Shown here piece after piece: positions 512 to 13,531 of a DNA stretch of 40,043 nt. A model generated the notes under the pieces. That model was given only the letters and a program-made list of their open reading frames with translations. It made no database searches and was not told where the DNA came from. The first letter of the stretch is position 1. Each line of letters begins with the position of its first letter. The DNA is taken from positions 1-40,043 of the forward strand of contig CAXTKV010000016.1 in NCBI GenBank assembly GCA_964244895.1, in the 5' to 3' direction. A program made the position numbers and the translations under genes. Origin of the DNA: an uncultured Deinococcales bacterium (GTDB taxonomy: Bacteria > Deinococcota > Deinococci > Deinococcales > JAAFIG01).

Positions 512-2074
512 TTACGCCCCACCACCCGCGTACTGCTGGAAGCGGAAAATCACGAACTCGGCGGGCTTGACCGGAGCCATCCCGATCTCGATGATCAACT
601 GGCCTCGGTCGCGCACGTCAGGCGGGTTCAGTTCCTCGTCGCACTTGACGAAGAAAGCCTGACCCGGTGTCGCCCCGAAGAGCGCCCCATCGCGCCACAC
701 GCCCATCAAGAAGGCCCCTACGTCGCGCTTGACGCGCTCCCAGAGGTTCTGGTCGTTGGGCTCGAACACGACCCACTGCGTGCCGCCCTCGATCGATTTC
801 TCGACGTAATTGAACAAGCGGCGCACGTTGATGTAGCGCCAGGCCGGGTCGCTCGAGAGGGTGCGGGCACCCCAGACGCGCACGCCCATCCCGGTGAAGG
901 TGCGGATGCAGTTCACGCCCACGGGGTTCAGCGTGTCCTGCTCGCCCTTGGTGATCTGCGCCACAGGGTTCAGGGCACCGCGCACGACCTCGTTGGCGGG
1001 AGCCTTGTGGACGCCGCGCTCTGCGTCGTTGCGCGCCCAGATGCCCGCGACGTGCCCGCACGGTGGCACGGCCATCGGCTTGCCATCTGGGCCGTTGACC
1101 ATGATCCACGGGTAGTAGAGCGCCGCGAACTTCGAGTCAAAATTCGATTCGGTGTTGCGCCACTTCTTGACCTCTTGCGGATTGAGGTTGGGCAGCGGGT
1201 CGATGATGGCGATGCGATCCTGCATGCGCTCGGCGTGCCCAATCATGGCCAATTGCACGGCCTTGACGCCATCCTTGTCGAGCATGCCCTTTTCGAAGGC
1301 GCTCATCAGGTCGGGCGCGCAGAGCATCGTGACATCGTCCGCGATCTCGAGGCCCTCGACGCCGGAGCGGTCGATCACGCTGCCGACGAAATCGTTCGAC
1401 TTCACCACGGGGGCGCTGCCCGCTGCAGGAGCCTTGATGACGTAGCTGCCAACCGCCGGCATCCGCTCCTGGAGCGAGCCTGTCGAGGAAACCTCGATCA
1501 GCGTGATCAGTTGGCTGGTCGAGACCGCCTCGTTTACCGGGCGCGCACTCGAGCCCTTCGGAACCTTGCGATCCGCGATGACGTTCTCGAAGGTTTCCTC
1601 GAGGGTGCCCATCTTGATCTTGAGATTGAAAGACCCCTCTGGCGCGTCCGGGCCGCTGAAAGGTACGACATCCACGACGATGTCGCTCGTCTGAGCACCC
1701 TTGGAAGCGAGCGTGATGCTCGGCACGGCCTTCGAGGCCGTCGAGGGCAATTGGGCGCTCGACGGCTTCTCGTCGCCCTTGGCGCTCGGCAACAACCGCG
1801 TGACGTAGCAGCGCGTGCCTCCGTTGGTGAAGTAGCCGTAGACGGCGTGAGCAAGATACGCCCCGGCCATGTACGGATTGACCTTGCCGTCCTCCTCGAT
1901 CGAGCCGAAGTTCTCGACGTACTGCGACCAATTCGTGACCAGCACGGGCTTGTTGGCGGGCCCCGCCGGGGCAAACCCGACGAACGCGGCCATTGCCGTG
2001 CCGACGCCCTCGATGGGTCGCGGACCGACGTTGACTTCCTCGATGTACACGCCTGGGGACAGGTATTCCGGCAT
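512..2074 (-). CDS. Contractile phage tail sheath protein (eCIS Afp2/3/4-like)
   Basis: N-terminus MPEYLSPGVYIEEV; motifs YYPWI, PPCGHVAGIWARND..RGVHKAPANEV, WGARTL, WRYINVRRLF, WVVFEPND, APVKPAEFVIFR. Start placed at ATG 2074 with a GGAGG RBS. Confidence 0.95.
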   Translation of the reverse strand: MPEYLSPGVYIEEVNVGPRPIEGVGTAMAAFVGFAPAGPANKPVLVTNWSQYVENFGSIEEDGKVNPYMAGAYLAHAVYGYFTNGGTRCYVTRLLPSAKGDEKPSSAQLPSTASKAVPSITLASKGAQTSDIVVDVVPFSGPDAPEGSFNLKIKMGTLEETFENVIADRKVPKGSSARPVNEAVSTSQLITLIEVSSTGSLQERMPAVGSYVIKAPAAGSAPVVKSNDFVGSVIDRSGVEGLEIADDVTMLCAPDLMSAFEKGMLDKDGVKAVQLAMIGHAERMQDRIAIIDPLPNLNPQEVKKWRNTESNFDSKFAALYYPWIMVNGPDGKPMAVPPCGHVAGIWARNDAERGVHKAPANEVVRGALNPVAQITKGEQDTLNPVGVNCIRTFTGMGVRVWGARTLSSDPAWRYINVRRLFNYVEKSIEGGTQWVVFEPNDQNLWERVKRDVGAFLMGVWRDGALFGATPGQAFFVKCDEELNPPDVRDRGQLIIEIGMAPVKPAEFVIFRFQQYAGGGA

Positions 2075-2559
2075 GTTTTCCTCCGTTGAGATGAGTCGAT
2101 TTCCGCGCCGCACCCACGATCAAACCTGTGCGGTGACGCGTGATTGGTCGGGCACGTTCATGGCGGTCGGCGCACGCCGAGCTGTCTGTTCCCAACGGCG
2201 TTCTCATCCGAAGTGCGACCCCGACCGTTCCAGTTCCCCTCCATCTCTACCCCCTTTCGAGGTGGACATTCCCACGGCTCTCCACGGTGTAATCAGCATG
2301 GGGGGCTTTTGAGAACGTTCTGGCGCTCGTGTTCAGTGTAAACGAGATTTCATCCAACCCTACAAGAAACGCGAATTGTCACGTCCTGACCGTGAGAAAA
2401 CGCGGCTCGGAGTTTTGATCGTTTGTGGACTGCAGTTCAGCATCTCTTGGGCGGCATTCCCCAATTCGGTCGGCGACTCGAGCCCACACTTCGAGCGAGG
2501 GCGGGGTTGAGCTGCACGCCCAAGGATCGCACACTCGAGACCCCGCTCGGTTTTGCGGT

Positions 2560-3101: not shown

Positions 3102-4997
3102 TCAAAGCTTGTGTTTCGCGGCTCGCGGTCGCTTTGGCCGGTTCGCTGGTGCGGACTTAGGACGTGTGTCGCTGACGCTCAGGCGGCGCAGCATGGCGGT
3201 TTTCTTGTTCTGGTGCGATCTCATGCGCCCCAGCACGTCATCCAGAAACGAGACCGCCTCGTCGATGTACGGCCCCTTGTTGAGCATCACGCACTCCGCG
3301 CGGCCCGACATGGCGGCGTCGGTCACCTCGGCCCGCGTCGGCAGACCGCTCTTGGCGAGGCTCTCGAGCACCTGGGTGGCCCAGATCACCGGAATGTGGG
3401 CGGCCTCGCAGAGCCACAAGATTTCTTCTTGGACTTCTGCCAGGCGCTCAAAGCCGATCTCTACCCCCAGATCGCCGCGCGCCACCATCACCGCGACGGG
3501 CGGGTGCCTGAGCGCCGTCAGCAGGAGATCGGGCAGGTTCTCGAAGGCTTGACGGTTCTCGATCTTCAACACGATGCCCAGTTGCGGTGCCTCGAATCGG
3601 TCGAGTTCGGCGATCAAGCGTTCGACATCGTGGCGATGGCGCACGAACGACAGCGACACCATGTCGGCGCGCTCGGCGATGAATGGCAGGTCGGCGAGGT
3701 CCTTTTCGGTCAGCGCCGAGAGGTGAAATTCCGTGTCGGGCAGGTTGATTCCTTTTTCGGCGCGCAGTTTGGCCGTGCCACCGTGCGCGCTCGTGATCTC
3801 GACCTCGAGTTGCTGTGCGCTGACGGCCCGGATGACCCCGGCTATCTTGCCGTCGTCAAACAGGATGCGCTGGTTCGCTTTCGCATCGCTGAAGACCTCC
3901 GGCAGCGTGCAGGCGATGTGCGCGGGTTGGGCTGCACCAATCTCGCCCCGAGCGTTCTCGCCGGGGATCGGTTCGCGCGTCACGATCAAGCGGTCCTTGA
4001 GGCTCAACTCGAGCGCCTGCGGGCGGGCGGGTAATGCGCCGATCTGACCCTCGGTGAGTCTGTTGCCTTCGCGGTACAAGCCCACCGCCATGTGAGATGT
4101 CAGGTACGCGGTTCGATCCGTGGCGCAGACGCAGCCGTCGGTCGTGATCTCGAGCACCTCGAGACTTCGCTCGCGCCCTCTGGCGTCCGTCAGGCGAACC
4201 TCGTCTTCGATTCGGCAGGCTTCAAGGAATGCCCGGTTGATCGGCACGCGGGCGGTTCCGTCCTCGAGTTTGGAAAGCGATGCGGTCAAGAAGACTCGCG
4301 CGCGAACCGTCACACGCCCCATCTGGTCGCGCTCCGGGCGCACCTTCAAGACCTCAGGGCCGGGCGCGATGGAACCTGTGCGCAGCTTGGGACCGGCGAG
4401 ATCGAACGCGACGCGGCAGGTGCGCCCGAGGCGTTCGGCCTCGGCATCCCGGTTCGCCAGCATCTGCGCCCAGATGACCTCGTCGTCGTGGGCGCAGTTG
4501 ACGCGCATGATGTCCATGCCGCGCTCGAGAAGTCGCCCGATCAGGTCGGGTTGTTGCGCCGCCTCGCTCGGCATCGTGACCATGATCCGCACCGCACGGT
4601 GCTTCGGGCGCGCCCCGAGCATCCGCAGGGTGTGATTGCGCAAGAGCCGTTCGCCGGAATGCATGTCGGGTGCTGCTTCGAGGTCGTCGGGCGGACTCAG
4701 GCCCGCCATGCGGTGCAGCGCGACCAGCACGGCGTTCAAGGTCGGCAGCACGCTCGCCTCCATCCGCCCGAGCGAACTCAGGCCCAGCCGTTGCAGTTCG
4801 AGCTGCAAGCTTCGGATGTCCTGGCGGCGCACCGCGAGGTAATGCACGAGGTTCCGCGCGCTCCGGCGGTAGGCCGCGCTCACCTGCTGCAGGTCGGGTG
4901 CGTGGCGTTTCTCGAGCGCGAGGGCATCGTGACGAAGGCCGGTCAGGTCAGCGATGGCTTTGAGGATGCGGTCGCGATCGGAAGTCGTGGGCTTCAT
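3102..4997 (-). CDS. pyk: Pyruvate kinase (long ~630 aa form)
   Basis: Motifs RVNCAH, DLAGPKLRTG, FDDGKI, KGINLP, LKIEN, MVARGDLGVE, WATQVLESL..SGLPTRAEVTDA, ECVMLNKG. Confidence 0.93.
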   Translation of the reverse strand: MKPTTSDRDRILKAIADLTGLRHDALALEKRHAPDLQQVSAAYRRSARNLVHYLAVRRQDIRSLQLELQRLGLSSLGRMEASVLPTLNAVLVALHRMAGLSPPDDLEAAPDMHSGERLLRNHTLRMLGARPKHRAVRIMVTMPSEAAQQPDLIGRLLERGMDIMRVNCAHDDEVIWAQMLANRDAEAERLGRTCRVAFDLAGPKLRTGSIAPGPEVLKVRPERDQMGRVTVRARVFLTASLSKLEDGTARVPINRAFLEACRIEDEVRLTDARGRERSLEVLEITTDGCVCATDRTAYLTSHMAVGLYREGNRLTEGQIGALPARPQALELSLKDRLIVTREPIPGENARGEIGAAQPAHIACTLPEVFSDAKANQRILFDDGKIAGVIRAVSAQQLEVEITSAHGGTAKLRAEKGINLPDTEFHLSALTEKDLADLPFIAERADMVSLSFVRHRHDVERLIAELDRFEAPQLGIVLKIENRQAFENLPDLLLTALRHPPVAVMVARGDLGVEIGFERLAEVQEEILWLCEAAHIPVIWATQVLESLAKSGLPTRAEVTDAAMSGRAECVMLNKGPYIDEAVSFLDDVLGRMRSHQNKKTAMLRRLSVSDTRPKSAPANRPKRPRAAKHKL

Positions 4998-5269
4998 CGC
5001 TTCAACCTCGCACCTTTTCTAGATCCGTGGGTCAGATCGCCCCTGGATTTCATAGACGAAGTTGAGTTTTCGCCGCGCGCTCTCGAGCGGGCGTCCGAAC
5101 TGAGCTGCACTCAACTCGAGCTGGGTCACAGCTCGCTGCGTGTTCGAGAAGACCGTGTGGGACGTGAATTTTGAGCGCACGACCCTTAGGTCTCGGACGG
5201 GTTTCATGTCGCGCGGTTCGGTTGGGTTCTCGACAACTCGCGTCGGTTCCAACCCGACACGCCGCCCCG

Positions 5270-5713
5270 TCAGCGCGTCGCGCGACGCCAACGGTCCTCA
5301 AATTTGAACGAGGGAGATTCGGTCAGCGGCACGATCTGAACGGGGATCTCGGCGGCGCTCGCCACGCTCAACGAGACCGAACCGAGCGCGACCCGTCGCG
5401 CGTCGTGCGAACCTCGAGCGCCGATCACGATCAGGTCGGCGTTCGCGTTTCGGGCCACCTCGAGAATGCACGCCGGGACGCTCCGATAGCCCGCCAGTAC
5501 GGTGAGCAATCCCGGTGTGAACCTCGAGCCAATTGCCGCCCGCTCGAGCAAGGCCCTGGCAGCCTCGAGCGTTTCAGGATCGTGTTCGGTGGCGCAGACG
5601 ACGTGAACGAAGCTCAGGCGGCTGCCCAGCAGCCTCGAGAGGTGCTGGGCGTGCCTGACGGCGTTCCCGCTGCCATGACGGTCATCCACGGGAACGAGAA
5701 TGTGGCGGAACAC
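5270..5713 (-). CDS. Universal stress protein (UspA family)
   Basis: FRHILVPVD N-terminus and ADLIVIGARG...LGSVS motif; GTG start at 5713 with GGAGG RBS. Confidence 0.9.
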   Translation of the reverse strand: MFRHILVPVDDRHGSGNAVRHAQHLSRLLGSRLSFVHVVCATEHDPETLEAARALLERAAIGSRFTPGLLTVLAGYRSVPACILEVARNANADLIVIGARGSHDARRVALGSVSLSVASAAEIPVQIVPLTESPSFKFEDRWRRATR

Positions 5714-5771
5714 GGGTGAACCTCCGGGTGCGCTCCACACGGCGCGCTGTCAGGTGATCCTGAGGCCAGAC

Positions 5772-5789
5772 CATTACCGGACGATTACA
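5772..5789 (-). promoter_or_regulatory. Putative SARP-type direct-repeat box upstream of usp
   Basis: Minus strand TGTAATC-GTCC-GGTAATG (11-bp period), then 9 nt, then CAGGAT (-10-like). Confidence 0.55.
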
Positions 5790-5792
5790 AAC

Positions 5793-5816
5793 GAGAACGC
5801 CGTCCAGCACGGTGCT
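5793..5816. repeat. Single REP-like palindrome
   Basis: GAGAACGCCGTCCAGCACGGTGCT, a variant of the window-wide GAACACCGTCCAGSACGGTGTTC motif. Confidence 0.7.
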
Positions 5817-5833
5817 GTAATGCTTTGGTCACG
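5816..5833 (+). promoter_or_regulatory. Putative SARP-type direct-repeat box upstream of the BTAD regulator (autoregulation)
   Basis: TGTAATG-CTTT-GGTCACG (11-bp period), then 9 nt, then GAGAGT (-10-like). Confidence 0.55.
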
Positions 5834-5890
5834 CGTGGGTTCGAGAGTACGCGAGTGCTTCACATGAGCTTCACCGCGCCCGAGGAGCCT

Positions 5891-6772
5891 ATGATTGAAT
5901 TGTTGGTCACAAAGAACTCCAGGAGGCTGACCGTGCCAAGGCTCGAAGTTCAGACCCTCGGCAAAACCGATGTTCGAGTCGATGGACACCCCGCCGACTG
6001 GCACGCGCGGGCCGCCCAGGAGCTGTTCTTTTTCCTGCTCTCCAACCCCGAAGGCGTGGGCAAGGAAGCGATCCTCGAGCAACTTTGGAGTCTGAACCCA
6101 ACCCCGAGCGCCAGCAACCGCTTCCGCGTGACCGTCCACCGGGTTCGGGCCGCACTGGGCAGGCCGGACGCGATCCAGGAGCAATTCGGGCGCTACCGGG
6201 TTTCGCGCGAGGTGCTCGAGGCGACCGACATTCACGCGTTCTACACCGCGATGGATCAGGCGAGTCACGCCTCTGATTCCGCCGAGCGGCTGGCCCTCTA
6301 TCAGAAAGCGATCAGCGGCTACGCCGGGGATTACCTGGCGGACGAGCGGGCCGAGTGGGCCTCAAGAGCGCGCGAGGAACACAAGGCCACCTACGTCCGG
6401 GCGGCGCTCGAGGTGTCATTGCTGCACTGCGACCACGGCTCGTGCGCGTCGGCGGTCGGGGCGCTGGTTCGCGCCCTTCGGGCCGATCCGTTCATCGGCG
6501 AGAACTACCATCAGAAGCTGATGACCTGCCTGTCCGTGGTCGAGGGAAAGTACGCCGCCATCGAACACTATCGGCGCTTCCTGCACTTCTTGCGCGATGA
6601 ACTCGAAGACGCGCCGATGGACGAGACGCGCGATCTGGCAGAGCGCATCAAGGGCGGTGAATCCATTTGTGCGCGTCGAACGGGGCCGGATGCGCCGTTG
6701 ACGCTGAACTGTCCGCTGACGCCGGACGGCTCGTGCCCTGGCGTGTTCGGCGAGTTGATCAAGCTCGCCTGA
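5891..6772 (+). CDS. SARP/AfsR-like transcriptional activator (winged helix + BTAD) with Cys-rich C-terminus
   Basis: LEVQTLG...V.VDG, ELFFFLL, LEQLW, FRVTVHRVRAALG (wHTH); Y.GDYL....EWA...RE and ALRADPF.E..HQKLM..L...G....AIEHY..F...LRDEL (BTAD). ATG 5891 with GAGGAG RBS. Confidence 0.9.
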   Translation: MIELLVTKNSRRLTVPRLEVQTLGKTDVRVDGHPADWHARAAQELFFFLLSNPEGVGKEAILEQLWSLNPTPSASNRFRVTVHRVRAALGRPDAIQEQFGRYRVSREVLEATDIHAFYTAMDQASHASDSAERLALYQKAISGYAGDYLADERAEWASRAREEHKATYVRAALEVSLLHCDHGSCASAVGALVRALRADPFIGENYHQKLMTCLSVVEGKYAAIEHYRRFLHFLRDELEDAPMDETRDLAERIKGGESICARRTGPDAPLTLNCPLTPDGSCPGVFGELIKLA

Positions 6773-6855
6773 GGACTGGACTCGAGAGGCCCGTCAAGCT
6801 CGAAGCTTGTCGGTAGAGCTCGAAGTCGCACGGTTCGCCACCGCATTTCGTATCG

Positions 6856-6936
6856 AATCAAAACCCGCGTTTCTGGCGCGTGGGATACGAATGAAATCAT
6901 TCGGAATTGAAGCCGCGCAAGTGAAAGACGATTTCA
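6856..6936 (+). repeat. Dispersed ~85-bp non-coding repeat, copy A
   Basis: Near-identical to the reverse complement of 28401-28487; shares CTGGCGCGT.GGATACGAATGAAATC and GCCGCGCAAGTGAAAGACGATTTCA. Confidence 0.85.
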
Positions 6937-7273
6937 GATCAGCTGGTGGGTCGCTGCAAACACCGTCCAGCACGATGCTGGCACTCGAGACCGCGCCGGA
7001 TAACCCTGCGGCGAGCGCGAACGGCACGCTCAGACCATCGCTCATGCCGATCGCGACTTCTCGAGGTTGCGGTAGCCCGACCGCTCGAGCCAGGGCGCGC
7101 CGACACGCTCAGCGATCAATCGGCTGATCGGTTCCGCGCGCCTCGGCGCCGTCGGCGCGAAGCCGCGCGACCGGACTCGAGGAGACTCGAGCTTGTCCGG
7201 GACGCCTAGAATATAGAGCCGTCGTTTTGAACTCGAGACGGCGCGACTGGTCACAACTGCGCCTTTTCTTCTC

Positions 7274-7323
7274 AACACCGTCCTGGGCGTATTCTCGAGA
7301 ATGCGTCCAGGACGGTGTTCTCG
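7274..7323. repeat. REP doublet (REPIN-like hairpin)
   Basis: AACACCGTCCTGGGCGTATTC-TCGA-GAATGCGTCCAGGACGGTGTT, a near-perfect long hairpin just past the transporter stop. Confidence 0.85.
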
Positions 7324-7333
7324 TCGATCTGCA

Positions 7334-8992
7334 TCATTTCAACACCGTCAGCAACACCTGCGCGATCACGATCTTGGCGATCATGGCGAGCGGGTAGACG
7401 GTCGCGTACCCGACGTTCGGCGCGTCGCCCTTCGATTGCTCGGTGGCGAAGGCCAACACGGCGGGTTGCGTCTGCAAGCCCGCCAGCATCCCCGAGAGCG
7501 CGCCGAAGGGCACACGCAGGACGCGATGCCCGATCCACAGCGTCAAGAACGCTACGCTGCAGGTCATGACTGCGCCTACCGCGAACAGCAGCAGCCCGCC
7601 ACCGCCCGCGAAGGTGCTGGCGAAGGCGTAACCGCTGCGCGTACCGACGCCCGCCAGGAACAGAATCGTGCCGAGTTGCCGCAGGGTCAGGTTGGCGCTG
7701 TGCGGCAGTTGCCACAGCACCGGCCCCGTGCGCCCCAGCGCTCCCAGAATCAACCCCACGATCAACGGGCCGCCCGCCAGGCCCAGCTTGAAGCTCGAGC
7801 CAATCGTACCCGCGCCGAGTGCCGGTTCGCCGGGCAATGGAATCGGCAGGCTACCGAGCAGCAAGCCCAGCGCGATGCCCAGGCCGAAAGTCATCACGTC
7901 AATTTCCGAGAGCGCCCTGTCGGAATCGCCCAGAAACTGCGACACCTCTCGCATCCGGTCGGGCGGCGCGATCACGCGCACGCGGTCGCCCAGCTCCAGG
8001 ATCGTGTCGGCGTTCGGCGTGAATTCCACCTCACCGCGACGCACGCGCGTCACCAGCGCGCCGAAACGCTGCGGCAATTCCAACGCGCGCAATTTCTGTC
8101 CGGCGACCCGTTTTGAAGACACCGCCACGCGCCGGAAATCGAGCGCGCTGCGATCCAGCTCGAGCTTCTCCCCGGCGGGTTCGCCGATCTCGAGCGCGGC
8201 CTGGCGCACGACGCTGGGCGACCCGATCAGGCTGACGGTATCGCCCAATTCCAGCCTTGTCTGCGGCGCGACCAGCGCGATACCGCCAGCGTGCGCGTAC
8301 CGCCCCAGGATCACCGGCCAGCCTTTTGATCGCACCGCCTGGATCACCGGAACGTCCGTAAATTCCGGCGATCTGACGATCACGTCCTGGTGCGTGACAC
8401 CATCGGATACCGAATCCGAAACCTCGAGTTCATTGACGCGCCAGACGCGCCTCAGCACGTAGATGGCGACCAGCATCCCGATCACGCCGACCGGATACGC
8501 CACTGAATAAGCCACGACCGGTTCCGCCAGCGCGCGTTCCAGCGCCCCGCCCGATTTCAGCGCCCCGCCGGATTTCAGTGCCTCGAGCACGCCCGCCAGC
8601 GCCGGAGTATTCGTAAAGGCGCCCGCGAACAAGCCCACCGTCAGCGTGTTCTTCAAGCCCAAGACGACGTGCGCCAGCGCCGCCAGAGCGCCACCCAGCA
8701 CCAGCATCGACAGCACGAAGGCGTTGTCCCGCAACCCGCGCGATCTGAGGGCCGCGAAGAATCCCGGCCCGGAGGACAGACCGATGGTGTACACGAACAC
8801 CACCAGTCCGAATTGATAGATCACCTCCGGGAGCTTCACGTCCGGCGAGATTGCCCCGAACGCCAGCCCCGTGAACAACACCGCGCTGACCCCCAACGAG
8901 AACCCGCCCAGCCTGAACTGCCCGATCAAGTACCCGATGGCGGCGACGATGAACAGCAACAGGATCGGGTTTTGCTCGAGCAGCGCCAGCAT
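7334..8992 (-). CDS. AspT/YidE/YbjL family aspartate:alanine-exchanger-like transporter with TrkA-C domains
   Basis: Duplicated membrane domains (GLVVFVYTIGLSSGPGFF, GAFTNTPALA, VAYSVAYPVG; LGTILFLAGVG..SG, GLQTQPAVLAFA, GYATVYP) around a cytoplasmic TrkA-C pair (LELGD twice). Confidence 0.92.
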   Translation of the reverse strand: MLALLEQNPILLLFIVAAIGYLIGQFRLGGFSLGVSAVLFTGLAFGAISPDVKLPEVIYQFGLVVFVYTIGLSSGPGFFAALRSRGLRDNAFVLSMLVLGGALAALAHVVLGLKNTLTVGLFAGAFTNTPALAGVLEALKSGGALKSGGALERALAEPVVAYSVAYPVGVIGMLVAIYVLRRVWRVNELEVSDSVSDGVTHQDVIVRSPEFTDVPVIQAVRSKGWPVILGRYAHAGGIALVAPQTRLELGDTVSLIGSPSVVRQAALEIGEPAGEKLELDRSALDFRRVAVSSKRVAGQKLRALELPQRFGALVTRVRRGEVEFTPNADTILELGDRVRVIAPPDRMREVSQFLGDSDRALSEIDVMTFGLGIALGLLLGSLPIPLPGEPALGAGTIGSSFKLGLAGGPLIVGLILGALGRTGPVLWQLPHSANLTLRQLGTILFLAGVGTRSGYAFASTFAGGGGLLLFAVGAVMTCSVAFLTLWIGHRVLRVPFGALSGMLAGLQTQPAVLAFATEQSKGDAPNVGYATVYPLAMIAKIVIAQVLLTVLK

Positions 8993-9041
8993 GGTGGTTC
9001 CTTTCCGGGGCTGGAGACTGGATGCTCAGGCGGGTTCGTCT

Positions 9042-9095
9042 CGAGAACACCGTCCTGGACGTGGTTTTAATCTCGCGTGCTGGACGGTGTTCTCG
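9042..9095. repeat. REP doublet
   Basis: CGAGAACACCGTCC...GTGCTGGACGGTGTTCTCG inverted pair between pckG and the transporter. Confidence 0.85.
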
Positions 9096-9120
9096 TAACT
9101 TTTAGCCTGAGATTCACGCC

Positions 9121-10986
9121 TTACTCGTGCGCCAGCCCCCAGTGCTCTGGCGCGCGCCACAAACTGGACAGGATCAGCTCGCGGATGAAGATGAATTCCT
9201 TCGGCAGCTTGTCGTAGAGCTTGCTGAACAGCTCGTCGTGGCTGATCAATTCCTGGCGCCACAAATCGCGTTCGACGCTCATCAGCTGATTGAACTCGGA
9301 TGGACTGAACTCCAGGCCGCGCCAGTCGATGTCCTCGAAGCGCGGAACCCAGCCCAACGGCGATTCGATGCTCCCTGCTTGACCGCGAGCGCGTTCCACG
9401 ACCCATTTCAGGATGCGCATGTTGTCGCCGAAGCCGGGCCAGAGGAAGTTCCCGTCCTCGTCCTTGCGGAACCAGTTGACGTTGAAGATGCGCGGCGGGT
9501 TCGGGATGCTGCGCCCGAAGTTCAGCCAGTGGTTGAAGTAATCGCCCATGTGGTAGCCCGCGAAGGGCAGCATCGCGAACGGATCGCGCCGGACTTCGCC
9601 GAGGGTTCCAGTGGCGGCAGCGGTCGTCTCGCTGCCCATCGTGGCGGCGGCGTAGACGCCGTAATTCCAGTTGAAGGACTGGTACACCAGCGGCACCACG
9701 CTGGAGCGCCGACCGCCGAAGATGAAGGCGCTGATCGGCACGCCGTCCGGGTTGTCGGCGTCGCCGTCGATGCTCGGGCATTGCTCGATCGGCGCGGTGA
9801 ATCTCGAGTTGGCGTGCGCGGCCTTGCGCCCGCAACCGGGCGTCCAGTCCTGGCCCGTCCAGTCCAAGAGGTGCGCGGGTGCTTGCTCGGTCATGCCTTC
9901 CCACCAGACATCGCCTTCGTCGGTCAATGCGACGTTGGTGAAGATCGTGTTCTCGGTGATGCTGGCCATCGCGTTCGGGTTGGACTGGACGTTCGTGCCG
10001 GGTGCGACCCCGAAGAACCCGTTCTCCGGGTTGATGGCGTAGATCTGGCCGTCCGATCCAGGTTTGATCCAGGCGATGTCGTCTCCGACGGTCGTGATCT
10101 CCCAGCCCTCATCCAGGAAAGCTTTGGGCGGGATCAGCATGGCGAAATTCGTCTTGCCGCAGGCGCTCGGGAAGGCCGCCCCGACGTAGGTTTTCTGACC
10201 GTCCGGCGATTTCACGCCCAGGATCAACATGTGCTCCGCCAGCCAGCCCTCGTCCCTGGCAATCGCGCTGGCGATCCGCAGCGCGAAGCATTTCTTGCCC
10301 AACAGCGCATTGCCGCCGTAGCCCGAGCCGTAGCTCCAGATGGCGCGCTCTTCCGGGAAATGCGCGATGTACTTTTGCGGGTTGCACGGCCACGGCGCGT
10401 CCTGTTGACCCGGCTCGAGCGGCATCCCGAGGCTGTGCAGGCAGTGAACGAAATCGCCGTCGCCCAGTGCGTCCAGCGCGGGCTGGCCCATGCGCGTCAT
10501 GATCTTCATGCTGACGGCCACGTAGGGCGAATCCGTGAGTTGCACGCCGATGTGCGCGATCCGCGAACCCAACGGCCCCATGCTGAACGGGATGACGTAC
10601 ATCGTGCGACCGCGCATGCAGCCCTCGAAAAGCGGCGTCAGTCTGGCCTTCATCTCGCGCGGGGGCATCCAGTTGTTGGTCGGCCCGGCGTCGGATCTGG
10701 CCAGACTACAGATGAACGTGCGATCCTCGACTCGGGCCACGTCGGACTGATCGGAGCGCGCCAGAAAGCTGTTGGGGCGCAGCGCTGGGTTCAAGCGGGT
10801 GAAAGTTCCGGATTGCACCATCTGCTCGCAGAGCGCGTCGTACTCGGCCTGCGAACCATCGCACCAGTGAACCCGATCCGGCTGGCACAGCCCGATCATG
10901 TCCGCCACCCAGTGCTCAAGCCTGGGGTTCTTGAGCGAAGACGGGGCGTGCGCGGTTCCGTTGGCTTCGGTTCTCGAGGCGATCAT
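9121..10986 (-). CDS. pckG: Phosphoenolpyruvate carboxykinase (GTP)
   Basis: Motifs [98 protein letters not shown] 10986 with AAGGAG RBS. Confidence 0.97.
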
Positions 10987-11065
10987 GATGCTCCTTTGCA
11001 AGTTCGTGTGAACACCGTCGTGGTCGGCATTCTCGAGATCGTGTGCGGGATGGTGTTCTCAGAAT

Positions 11066-11165
11066 GAAGGGAAAAGGCTAAAGGTGAAAGCGAAAAGTGA
11101 CAGGTCGAGCACATCGCTCCCGGCGCGTCCCAGAGCTGTACTTTCACCTTTGCCCTTTCACCTTC
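11066..11165. repeat. Heptamer tandem repeats forming an imperfect hairpin (STRR-like)
   Basis: GAAGGGA AAAGGCT AAAGGTG AAAGCGA AAAGTGA ... CTTTCAC CTTTGCC CTTTCAC CTTC; a related element lies at 29943-30008. Confidence 0.7.
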
Positions 11166-11168
11166 GAT

Positions 11169-12092
11169 CTACTTCAAGTCCCAGGTCGCGCGGCGGATGC
11201 TCTCGAGCGAAACCTCGAGCGCGAGTTTTTCCTCACCGCTCAATTCCGGTTCCAGCGTGGCGATCACGCCCGCGCGACCGATCAGGCGCGGCAGGGCCAG
11301 CGCCAGACCGTAGGATTTGGTCGCGGCGGTCACGGTCATGACGGCGCGTTCATCGTTGACCACGACCTCCGCGATGCGCGCCAGGGCCGCGCCGACACCG
11401 AAGTGGCGTTCGCCCTTGCCGTCCACGATCCGCAGGGCGGTGTGTTTGACCTCGTCGGCGATCTCGAGTTGATCGGCGGCAGAAAAGTGCAGGCCGCGCC
11501 GAGCCAGATGCGCCGATAGCGGCAACCCGGCGACGGTGATGCTCGACCAGGCGATCACGCCCGCACCGCTCATCTCGCCGATGACGTGCGCGTGAACGTG
11601 GTCGGGGTGCACACCGATCCGGGCCGCCAGCGCGTCGCGCAGGCGAGCCGTCTGCACGACCGTGCCCGTCCCGATGACCTGGTCGTGCCTCGCACCCGCC
11701 AAGCGCGCCGCCAGTTCCGTCATCGGCTCGAGCGGCTGTGAGGCCACGATCAGCACCGCCTCCGGCGCGACCTCGAGAATCTGAGGCACCAGGCTGCCGA
11801 AGGCGCTGGCGGTGTTCTCGAACTGCTCGCGGCGCGTCTGGCCGGGCTTCTGGTTGATGCCGAGCGCCATGATCACGGCGCTCGCGCCCGAGAGATCGTG
11901 AATGGTTCCGCTCGTGACGCGCACACCGTGCTGGGCGGCCACGTCGATGTCGAGCGCCTGGGCTCGGGCTTTGGCCTCGTCCTTATCGACCAGAACGATC
12001 TCTCGGGCCGCACCGCGCAGCGCGAGCACGTCGGCTGCCGCCGATCCGACCAGTCCCGCGCCGACGATGCCAATTTTGGTGTTTGCGTTCAT
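11169..12092 (-). CDS. L-lactate/malate dehydrogenase family protein with substituted catalytic residues (probable pseudoenzyme)
   Basis: Rossmann KIGIVGAGLVG..LVD and loop QKPGQTR are present, but NPVD>QPLE, LDTAR>VQTAR and GEHGDS>GEMSGA. ORF intact with a strong RBS (GAGGAGG). Confidence 0.88.
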   Translation of the reverse strand: MNANTKIGIVGAGLVGSAAADVLALRGAAREIVLVDKDEAKARAQALDIDVAAQHGVRVTSGTIHDLSGASAVIMALGINQKPGQTRREQFENTASAFGSLVPQILEVAPEAVLIVASQPLEPMTELAARLAGARHDQVIGTGTVVQTARLRDALAARIGVHPDHVHAHVIGEMSGAGVIAWSSITVAGLPLSAHLARRGLHFSAADQLEIADEVKHTALRIVDGKGERHFGVGAALARIAEVVVNDERAVMTVTAATKSYGLALALPRLIGRAGVIATLEPELSGEEKLALEVSLESIRRATWDLK

Positions 12093-12145
12093 TCGATCCT
12101 CCTCGCGGAATTCGTTCCGCTCCCGCCCAGAGGATCGAATGCACC

Positions 12146-12163
12146 CGTTACGAAAGCGTTACG
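12146..12163 (-). promoter_or_regulatory. Putative SARP-type direct-repeat box upstream of the ldh-like/pckG/transporter operon
   Basis: Minus strand CGTAACG-CTTT-CGTAACG, a perfect heptamer direct repeat with 11-bp period, then 9 nt, then GATCCT (-10-like). Confidence 0.65.
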
Positions 12164-12339
12164 GCACCGTCCGACGCGCGAGAACGCTCCGCGCGAATGG
12201 GGGCGTCCCCTCGGGCTGGATTCGGGCTGGGTTCAGTGCGCGCTCTCGAGCTTCGAGGCGCGATGCGGGAATTTCCGGTGCGCCCGTTCCTCGCGCACCA
12301 GCATCACGGGTGCGCCCGCCGCGCACGCCACGCGCTCCG

Positions 12340-12700
12340 TGCGATTGCCCCGATAAAGTGGACGTGAAGCACCCCAACACGCTCAGTGCAGAATCAGGAG
12401 CGAACCTACCGACCAACAAACGCACCCATCCGTTCCTCCTCGAGTTCAAAACTCAAGCCGTGCAACCCGCCCTGACCAGCGGCATCGCTAGGCGCACCGT
12501 CGCTCAGGAACTCGGTGTTGGCCTTGGCACCCCGACCAAGAGCATCAAGCAGCATCAAAGCTCTCACGGTGTTCAACTCGCGTCAACCGTAACGGGTTTG
12601 ACCACACCGAGCGCTCGAGCAGCACAACCGTCGTTTGAAACGCGAACTCGAGATCGTGCGTCAGGAGCGTGCAATTTTTAAATCATTCCTAAAACCGCTG
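12340..12700 (+). mobile_element. IS3-family remnant (left end + degenerate OrfA)
   Basis: GATTGCCCCGATAAAGTGGAC resembles an IS3 terminal repeat. Translation EFKTQAVQ.ALTSGIARRTVAQELGVG..T..K.IKQ is HTH_Tnp_1-like, followed by a decayed ELEI.RQER.I.K segment. No OrfB. Confidence 0.7.
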
Positions 12701-12766
12701 TAGCGTCGAAACCTGATCGATGGCTGATCCGGGGTTGAACGCCTGAAGCGGTGCTGAGGGGAACCT

Positions 12767-13531
12767 TCACCTGGGCGAACTCGAGGTATCCCCGGTTTCG
12801 GGTCGTGGGGCGGTCTCCAGCCGGGATCGCCTGACCCTGGCGTCGAGAATCGTTGGAGCTCGCTCGCGTCGAACGGCGAGGTTCACGCCGCTCACCCAGG
12901 CGATCGCCGCGCCCCAGCCGGCCAGGACATCCGAAGGGTAATGCACGCCCAAGTACAGCCGCGTCAGGCCGATGACCGCCACGAAAACGCCTCCCAGAAT
13001 CAGCGTCAACCAACGCCAGCGCGTCCTCCACGCCAACACCGCCAGCGCCGCGACCATCGCCATCGAGCCCATCGCGTGACCGCTCGGGAAGCTGTAGCCG
13101 ATCTCCTGGATCGGCGAGACCCACAGCCGCGGACGCGCCCGCAGGAACGCGAACTTGGCCAGCAAGTCGATCGCACCCGCACCGACGACGGCCAGGGCGA
13201 CGAAAGTGGCCCTCGATCGGTGGCCCCTGTAGGCCAAGAGCGCGGCGAGCGCCGCTCCCGCGAGCGCCATCAACCCTCCCGAGCCGAAGAACGTGACCAC
13301 CACGGCCAGGCGATCGAGCGCGGGCGTCTCGAGTCGGTGCAGGGCGTTCAAGACTGGCGCGTCCCAGGCGAGCAGCTCCTTCGTCCAGATGTCCTCGGCC
13401 AGGGCCGCGAAGCCGTAAAGGGGAATCAGCACGCCGAAAAGCAGTACCAACCACCGTCGTTTCGGCCCGGCCCGATTCGGGTCGGTCGGTGGCGCGGGGT
13501 TCACGGGGTCGTCGCGCCGCTCGAGGTTCAC
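12767..13531 (-). CDS. PAP2-family membrane phosphatase
   Basis: K.AFLRARP, YSFPSGHA, TRLYLGVHYPSDVLAG motifs; the GTG start at 13531 overlaps the upstream stop (GTGA). Confidence 0.92.
   Translation of the reverse strand: MNLERRDDPVNPAPPTDPNRAGPKRRWLVLLFGVLIPLYGFAALAEDIWTKELLAWDAPVLNALHRLETPALDRLAVVVTFFGSGGLMALAGAALAALLAYRGHRSRATFVALAVVGAGAIDLLAKFAFLRARPRLWVSPIQEIGYSFPSGHAMGSMAMVAALAVLAWRTRWRWLTLILGGVFVAVIGLTRLYLGVHYPSDVLAGWGAAIAWVSGVNLAVRRERAPTILDARVRRSRLETAPRPETGDTSSSPR

Follow-up and report, generated by a model that had tools for sequence, protein, structure and literature searches.

A lactate dehydrogenase-like pseudoenzyme lineage of Deinococcota as a candidate NAD(H)-binding regulator in a putative low-oxygen regulon

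The gene designated here as ldhX, found in a 40,043-nucleotide stretch of DNA from an uncultured Deinococcales bacterium (GCA_964244895.1, contig CAXTKV010000016.1; the whole stretch is referred to as the window), encodes a full-length homolog of L-lactate dehydrogenase (LDH) in which the catalytic residues are replaced, and belongs to a group of such proteins in Deinococcota. By its sequence the product very probably possesses neither LDH nor malate dehydrogenase (MDH) activity. It is proposed tentatively, and as a whole at slightly less than an even chance, that it represents a non-catalytic NAD(H)-binding regulator of LDH fold, which would sense the redox state, with PckG as the likeliest partner, in a probable low-oxygen regulon. 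Pseudoenzyme sensors are already known as a kind; a conserved non-catalytic LDH lineage, if true, would be a new class of metabolic regulators. Such a family was not described in the open literature searched; the supplements of LDH phylogenies (e.g., PMC10583557) may include its sequences.

11169..12092, minus strand: ldhX, pseudo-LDH gene, 307 aa, no internal stops
12097..12104, minus strand: ribosome-binding site GAGGAGGA, 5' of the ldhX ATG, read from the sequence and already recognized in the initial annotation

The closest solved relatives of ldhX in the alignment are the LDHs of Deinococcus radiodurans (2v6b, E 8e-75) and Thermus. In comparison with these allosteric L-LDHs (2v6b; Thermus 2v6m/3vpg) ldhX is of equal length and approximately 45% identical and shares the fold (TM 0.94-0.95) and the NAD-binding motif, but replaces His195, Asp168, Asn140, Thr246, His68, and Tyr190 and scores below the TIGR01771 cut-off. 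The initial annotation described an intact LDH homolog deprived of its catalytic pair, and the Deinococcus/Thermus alignment confirmed this description to the codon: His195 is changed to Met (GEHGDS to GEMSGA, ATG codon 11571-11573) and Asp168 to Gln (LD(S/T)AR to VQTAR, CAG codon 11652-11654), and so is Asn140 (NPVD to QPLE, CAG codon 11736-11738). The retention of GAGLVG (GxGxxG), Asp52, Gln102, Arg109, and Arg171 was likewise borne out by motif alignment. Further substitutions are His68 to Val, Thr246 to Arg, Asp197 to Gly, Glu199 to Gly, Tyr190 to His, Ala98 to Leu, and Ile250 to Val. The His-Asp pair is essential in LDH catalysis. Residue numbers 52, 62, 98, 101, 140, 197, and 199 follow what we take to be the usual LDH numbering, while the numbering of His68, Gln102, Arg109, Asp168, Arg171, His195, Thr246, Ile250, and the fructose-1,6-bisphosphate (FBP) signature was taken from PMC10583557 and placed on ldhX by motif alignment.

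The Pfam domains Ldh_1_N and Ldh_1_C are above cut-off in ldhX, which assigns it to the LDH/MDH fold, and the structure model (pLDDT 87.8) superimposes on Thermus LDH with TM 0.94. The L-LDH equivalog TIGR01771 gives 228.6 bits against a cut-off of 303.55, and with Met, Gln, and Gln in place of the His195-Asp168 pair and Asn140 the protein falls outside L-LDH by residues as well; the substrate residues Gln102, Arg109, and Arg171 are present, Thr246 is Arg, and Ile250 is Val. The LDH-like malate dehydrogenase is marked by Arg102, while ldhX has Gln102 and scores 160.9 with NF004863 against a cut-off of 283. The FBP signature reads Arg173, His188, His190 and is incomplete, Tyr190 being replaced. 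GC3 (0.85) is similar to that of the adjoining genes. In its own genome ldhX is the sole LDH-like match by tblastn; contig C77 carries a distinct MDH whose motifs are intact, and LutB/C-type lactate oxidation genes occur. Gln/Gln/Met is likewise found in the four closest relatives (P0002-P0004 and P0359, 75-85% identity), and thus the substitutions are neither sequencing error nor chance. Among the best 80 of 459 loci from a metagenome scan based on the alignment 79 were canonical LDH and one was unreadable, the ESM Atlas matches were LDH clusters only, and no fusion partner was found at E<=1e-40 among proteins of 575-2000 aa, which is weak evidence.

Homologs sharing the His/Asp substitutions exist in at least 24 genomes. 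Of 364 Deinococcota genomes searched with a profile 174 gave a match, and since residues were read in 75 of these the 24 carriers are a lower bound. They include 13 genomes of family f1, the uncultured Deinococcales family of the window (19 genomes), 8 of family f5, presumably Thermaceae according to named Meiothermus records, and 3 of family f3, presumably Deinococcaceae (G155, G157, and G158), where G157 holds two copies. One Meiothermus homolog is WP_295398975.1. In f1 a full-length LDH homolog is present in 12 of 19 genomes, with His195, Asp168, and Asn140 absent in 12/12, while in G001 the first 109 codons lie at a contig end and encode a protein identical to the G005 copy; the altered form was found in 13/19 and a canonical LDH in 0/19. 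Two genomes, G155 and G182, carry the altered gene alongside an intact LDH. The DNA pattern GEHG(D/E), applied across the 364 genomes, was too unspecific for classing matches. In source databases these proteins are named "L-lactate dehydrogenase", and as a result an LDH is attributed to genomes that, judged by sequence, have no working one.

After a 97% identity filter the genome copies and database proteins of the group comprise 57 distinct sequences, His195 being absent from all. This number excludes 11 His/Asp-deficient sequences that branch elsewhere, namely the His195-less LDH-like proteins P0252, P0314, P0263/P0379/P0382, P0305, P0300, P0322, and P0265, several of which have Asn, Ser, Tyr, or Gln at position 195, P0298 with His present and Glu168, and L248. 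A separate LDH erosion is seen in family f2, where Glu140 and Pro/Ala102 occur in L248/L262 (G354) and L249/L263 (G356), with Arg195 in the G354 copy. Pseudoenzymes may have evolved from LDH on several occasions.

With the catalytic columns removed before tree construction, a 99/93 branch separates 19 core representatives from the rest; the core plus three basal sequences is supported by 90/41, and further addition of P0005, in which Asp168 and His195 are present, by 99/94. This support argues well for a single origin of the core group next to the Deinococcus-type LDH; the loss of His195 may have happened in one event or in two. The succession of states starts from P0005 (Thr140 with Asp/His intact), continues with L205 and P0214 (His gone, Asp168 and Arg171 present), and proceeds later through Gln/Arg/Met, the ldhX state, to Glu/Gln/Glu and then to loss of the loop and Thr246. 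This suggests a stepwise loss of the LDH active site, in an order which depends on rooting among the canonical LDHs. The intermediates, with His195 lost first, then Arg171, then the loop, offer material for enzyme-to-sensor studies.

Of the catalytic residues His195 is found in 0/57 of the group sequences, Asn140 in 1/57, and Asp168 in 2/57, and of the substrate residues Arg171 in 9/57, Thr246 in 13/57, Arg109 in 29/57, and Gln102 in 31/57; GxGxxG is preserved in 56/57 (the remaining sequence is without its N-terminus) and Asp52 in 57/57. In canonical Deinococcota LDHs the catalytic, substrate, and NAD-motif residues are all present in 46/46. The Gly99-equivalent and the Ala-x-x-Pro frame are kept in 57/57, and position 101 is Arg in 46/57, a residue which presumably contacts the NAD pyrophosphate in vertebrate LDH. 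His68 is lost in 57/57. Of the 72 positions that canonical Deinococcota LDH conserves, those kept least in the group lie mostly in the active-site pocket, and among those kept throughout are the Rossmann glycines, Asp52, D48, K226, and W182, the last three of which we take to be subunit interface positions. Thus, the common denominator of the group is the dinucleotide fold and core without the keto-acid site. The NAD(H) site is predicted to be retained in ldhX and the group, and the ldhX protein is likely to assemble into an LDH-like oligomer and to bind NAD(H). Of the earlier claim that the ligand-binding residues persist, the NAD(H) part holds by sequence, and the pyruvate/lactate part is weakened by the group counts of Arg171, Arg109, Gln102, and Thr246. 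Two facts speak against an NAD(H) sensor: Ala98, which we assume to adjoin the adenine pocket, is replaced (Leu in ldhX, Pro in 13/57), and Rex was found in 5/5 genomes checked, so that a dedicated NADH sensor is already there.

The gene neighborhood of ldhX in the window includes the following features.

9121..10986, minus strand: pckG, GTP-dependent PEP carboxykinase, without a promoter box (described below) of its own in this genome
7334..8992, minus strand: AspT/YidE (AAEx-family) transporter with TrkA-C domain (NF003007 410.8 bits, below the 449 cut-off)
5270..5740, minus strand: universal stress protein (Usp) gene, followed by pyruvate kinase (3102-4997) on the same strand
11055..11172, minus strand: long hairpin predicted between the ldhX and pckG genes (-52.5 kcal/mol, z -5.1)

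The order ldhX, pckG, AspT/YidE-family transporter on one strand makes co-transcription of the three genes a reasonable inference. The initial annotation placed ldhX at the head of a PEPCK operon; this is correct for the window's genome (G000) and G005, the 2 genomes with pckG directly 3' of ldhX on the same strand, and does not apply generally, since the two genes are divergent in five genomes (G004, G008, G012, G014, and G017) and pckG is found within 2.5 kb of ldhX in 9/24 carriers and not in 15/24, within the contigs examined. In genus g5 the arrangement is divergent and not an operon. CBS or Usp genes separate ldhX from pckG in G155 and G011, one G157 copy sits before the transporter gene, in four g4 genomes ldhX follows Usp genes, and the neighbors of the eight f5 copies vary, these copies being neither pckG-adjacent nor boxed. 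In the 19 genomes of f1 ldhX and pckG occur together in 12, neither in 5, ldhX alone in G003, and pckG alone in G013 (82% complete); this co-occurrence is partly trivial because the genes adjoin and the genomes are kin. A G013 fragment considered as ldhX was ruled out, being MDH. Among all carriers pckG was not found in 4/24: G003 (92% complete), G158 (95%), G203 (77%), and G208 (85%). No homolog of the BTAD-domain protein encoded nearby was found at E<=1e-25 in the carriers G184 (99% complete) and G206 (92%), G003 has only a weak, stop-containing match to it, and the transporter is absent from carriers more often than pckG or BTAD. No partner is universal among ldhX carriers.

The stability of the 11055-11172 hairpin was equaled in 0/200 shuffles; a search of 5000-13000 against Rfam gave a single match (E 0.39, disregarded) and none for the hairpin. 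Close to it, at 11010-11060, lies an element of about 50 nt with dozens of genome copies about 80% identical among the matches listed, and another is at 7266-7322. A 356-aa open reading frame 3' of pyruvate kinase (1137-2207, minus strand) is without Pfam or NCBIfam match.

A second group of features in the window connects ldhX with a putative regulon.

12146..12163, minus strand: predicted BTAD/SARP-type operator, a direct repeat with a period of 11 nt (CGTAACG-CTTT-CGTAACG; core GTAAY-N6-GTAAY)
12131..12136, minus strand: predicted -10 element GATCCT, at a fixed distance from the ldhX box
5773..5788, minus strand: second GTAAY-N6-GTAAY box, 5' of the Usp gene, predicted -10 CAGGAT
5825..6772, plus strand: BTAD-domain activator gene with conserved cysteines, start codon uncertain

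In 24 cluster loci (318 kb; a few loci share a genome) GTAAY-N6-GTAAY occurs at 65 sites, compared with 0-8 sites for each of the other spacings from 2 to 12, and the spacing-6 box is present 0 times in 15 f5 loci and 2 times in 12 canonical-LDH loci. The boxed sites have A at position 28 in 63/65 and T at position 32 in 63/65, which indicates a fixed -10 element beginning 10 nt past the 16-nt core and 8 nt past the extended repeat. The box stands directly 5' of ldhX in 10/25 copies and 5' of a Usp run reaching ldhX in 4, and it was not seen for 11/25 (8 in f5, G158, the second G157 copy, and G011, where the contig ends upstream). Genes for pckG, CBS, Usp, and BTAD likewise have the box on their 5' side, and other boxed genes or runs in the vicinity encode, among others, phosphoketolase, 1-phosphofructokinase-type PfkB, and heme-copper oxidase. 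Across the whole ldhX genome there are 12 boxes at spacing 6 versus 18 at spacing 7, 14 at spacing 10, and 17 at spacing 13, and therefore the support comes from the cross-genome footprint and not from the count in that genome; a sigma-70 scan did not detect the boxed ldhX promoter.

A direct repeat at fixed spacing 5' of a -10 element corresponds to the SARP/BTAD promoter layout, the sites of SARP activators being direct repeats that lie upstream of the -10 element by eight nucleotides (PMC11301090). The likeness to AfsR consists in these repeats a short fixed distance 5' of the -10 and in the BTAD neighbor; however, the repeat sequence differs, the Deinococcota targets are genes of central metabolism and stress and not antibiotic clusters, and the BTAD protein carries conserved cysteines. 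Five of them are invariant in 9 orthologs, two in the C-terminal tail, and could possibly form a metal or Fe-S oxygen sensor. The BTAD protein itself, which has at least one paralog in its genome (L275:2810-3652), quite likely binds the box, judging from the layout and the boxes 5' of BTAD genes. This SARP/BTAD-type regulon of Deinococcota, with GTAAY-N6-GTAAY and a fixed -10, is apparently undescribed; besides the two window boxes it is represented by loci L021-L032, L205-L214, L267, and L275.

Usp and CBS proteins belong to the mycobacterial hypoxia response, and Thermus DnrS has a BTAD domain. The mycobacterial hypoxia response (DosR) has a similar content of Pck and PfkB (PMC5279734), and DnrS is an oxygen-sensitive regulator within the same phylum (PMC7694296). 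Because of these resemblances a low-oxygen signal is proposed, and the regulon so defined probably covers the ldhX, pckG, Usp, CBS, and BTAD genes together with phosphoketolase and PfkB genes; that the BTAD protein would respond to low oxygen can be considered somewhat probable from gene content. In contrast to the known hypoxia regulators the window BTAD protein gave no GAF match. The box defines a testable regulon for how Deinococcota may cope with low oxygen.

In NmrA/HSCARG, Gal80, and sensor Rex a Rossmann fold reads the dinucleotide state without catalysis; NmrA/HSCARG and Gal80 come from other enzyme families (SDR and GFO) with transcription factors or DNA as partners, and to our knowledge none of the three is LDH-derived. 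For ldhX the suggested sequence of events is that the gene would be induced together with pckG at low oxygen via BTAD and the box, and that the protein would bind NAD(H) without turnover and relay the NADH/NAD+ state to the PEP-oxaloacetate node through PckG. PckG would then be shifted to PEP-to-oxaloacetate flux, supplying MDH and dicarboxylate export, so that PckG, the intact MDH, and the AAEx exporter might constitute a reductive route to exported dicarboxylate. Mycobacterial Pck becomes anaplerotic in hypoxia and is redox-controlled (PMC5279734), and the succinate exporter SucE1 is one of the AAEx transporters (PMC9527358). PckG itself is the likeliest single target of the ldhX protein and, taken alone, a doubtful one: pckG was not found in G003, G158, G203, and G208, the 8 f5 copies are neither beside pckG nor boxed, many f5 genomes have pckG without ldhX (in genus g13 24/26 genomes against 5), and in G153 and G154, where pckG and BTAD are boxed, the only LDH is a canonical one. 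More speculative still, and rather improbable as a whole, is the extended statement that LDH-derived pseudoenzymes read NADH/NAD+ throughout the phylum and toggle GTP-PEPCK between gluconeogenic and anaplerotic modes under an oxygen-responsive SARP/BTAD regulon, with living intermediates.

The substitutions at the three catalytic positions are narrow: position 140 is Gln or His in 55/57, position 168 Glu or Gln in 55/57, and position 195 Glu or Gln in 46/57, and the rates of these sites are within the slowest 11-27%. Together with the intact NAD site this keeps as candidates a filled pocket and a rebuilt one, in which Gln140/Glu168/Glu195 might run another NAD-dependent or metal-assisted reaction; such new chemistry is nevertheless improbable, since Gln/Gln/Met of ldhX leaves none of the three positions with an ionisable group, Ala or Ser also occurs at 195 in some members, and the loop, 171, and 246 vary freely among sub-lineages.

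Transcription factors are the targets of NmrA- and Gal80-type proteins. By comparison, the ldhX protein might be a ligand-sensing co-regulator of the BTAD activator providing feedback on its own regulon, which is consistent with the box common to ldhX and the BTAD gene, with BTAD directly upstream in G155, and with a close BTAD homolog in G158, where pckG was not found. This seems unlikely, a shade more so than new chemistry, considering G184 and G206 without a detected homolog, the stop-containing match of G003, and the position of the f5 copies outside the regulon.

Sensing of FBP at the former allosteric tetramer-interface site is quite unlikely. The signature, as defined in PMC10583557, is retained as Arg173 in 52/57, His188 in 48/57, and Tyr190 in 38/57, with all three in 34/57; however, it shows no excess in diverged members (11/22 complete) over the catalytically intact LDH-like representatives (50/115), ldhX has His190, and His68 of the allosteric switch is lost throughout the group.

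The same low expectation applies to the former substrate pocket as a binding site for pyruvate, lactate, oxaloacetate, or PEP. The ldhX sub-lineage retains Gln102, Arg109, and Arg171 and gains Arg246, giving an anion-rich pocket, but Arg171, Arg109, and Gln102 are lost in many members by the above counts, and none of the three remains in the g5-type branch, where position 246 is Phe. The pyruvate/lactate-sensor idea is weakened by these losses, and pyruvate/lactate binding appears possible for the ldhX sub-lineage only.

The preferred reading, a non-catalytic regulator, presupposes that the altered genes are maintained. Pairwise dN/dS of the Nei-Gojobori type, calculated with our own script and measured on relatives and not on ldhX's own branch, was 0.08-0.33 in the altered-LDH group overall: 0.09-0.15 in genus g4 (median 0.12, 10 pairs), 0.08-0.20 in genus g5 (3/10 pairs with dS <1.5), and 0.10-0.33 in family f5 (median 0.165, 28 pairs), with medians of 0.16, 0.34, and 0.34 in canonical LDH sets. 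Between G005 and G001 there are 0 amino-acid changes over 109 codons at dS 0.36. Thus, ldhX relatives are maintained by purifying selection and are not decaying; orthologs without catalytic residues, an intact frame, and this selection on relatives together characterize a pseudoenzyme by sequence. Simple decay of a superfluous LDH, to which long branches, the two G157 copies (dN/dS 0.27, one appearing more eroded), and the LutB/C-type genes might point, is extremely improbable in view of these values, the intact frames in members 29-41% identical, and the conserved promoter. The initial preference for a pseudoenzyme over decay is upheld by the same data, by the losses common to a diverged group, and by the intact LDH alongside in G155 and G182. 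The G003 copy is also under purifying selection, and in that genome locus L267 (G003:C34:46000-64000) contains boxed Usp and phosphoketolase genes, a broken-looking BTAD gene, and pyruvate-kinase fragments, which suggests a regulon in decay while ldhX remains intact.
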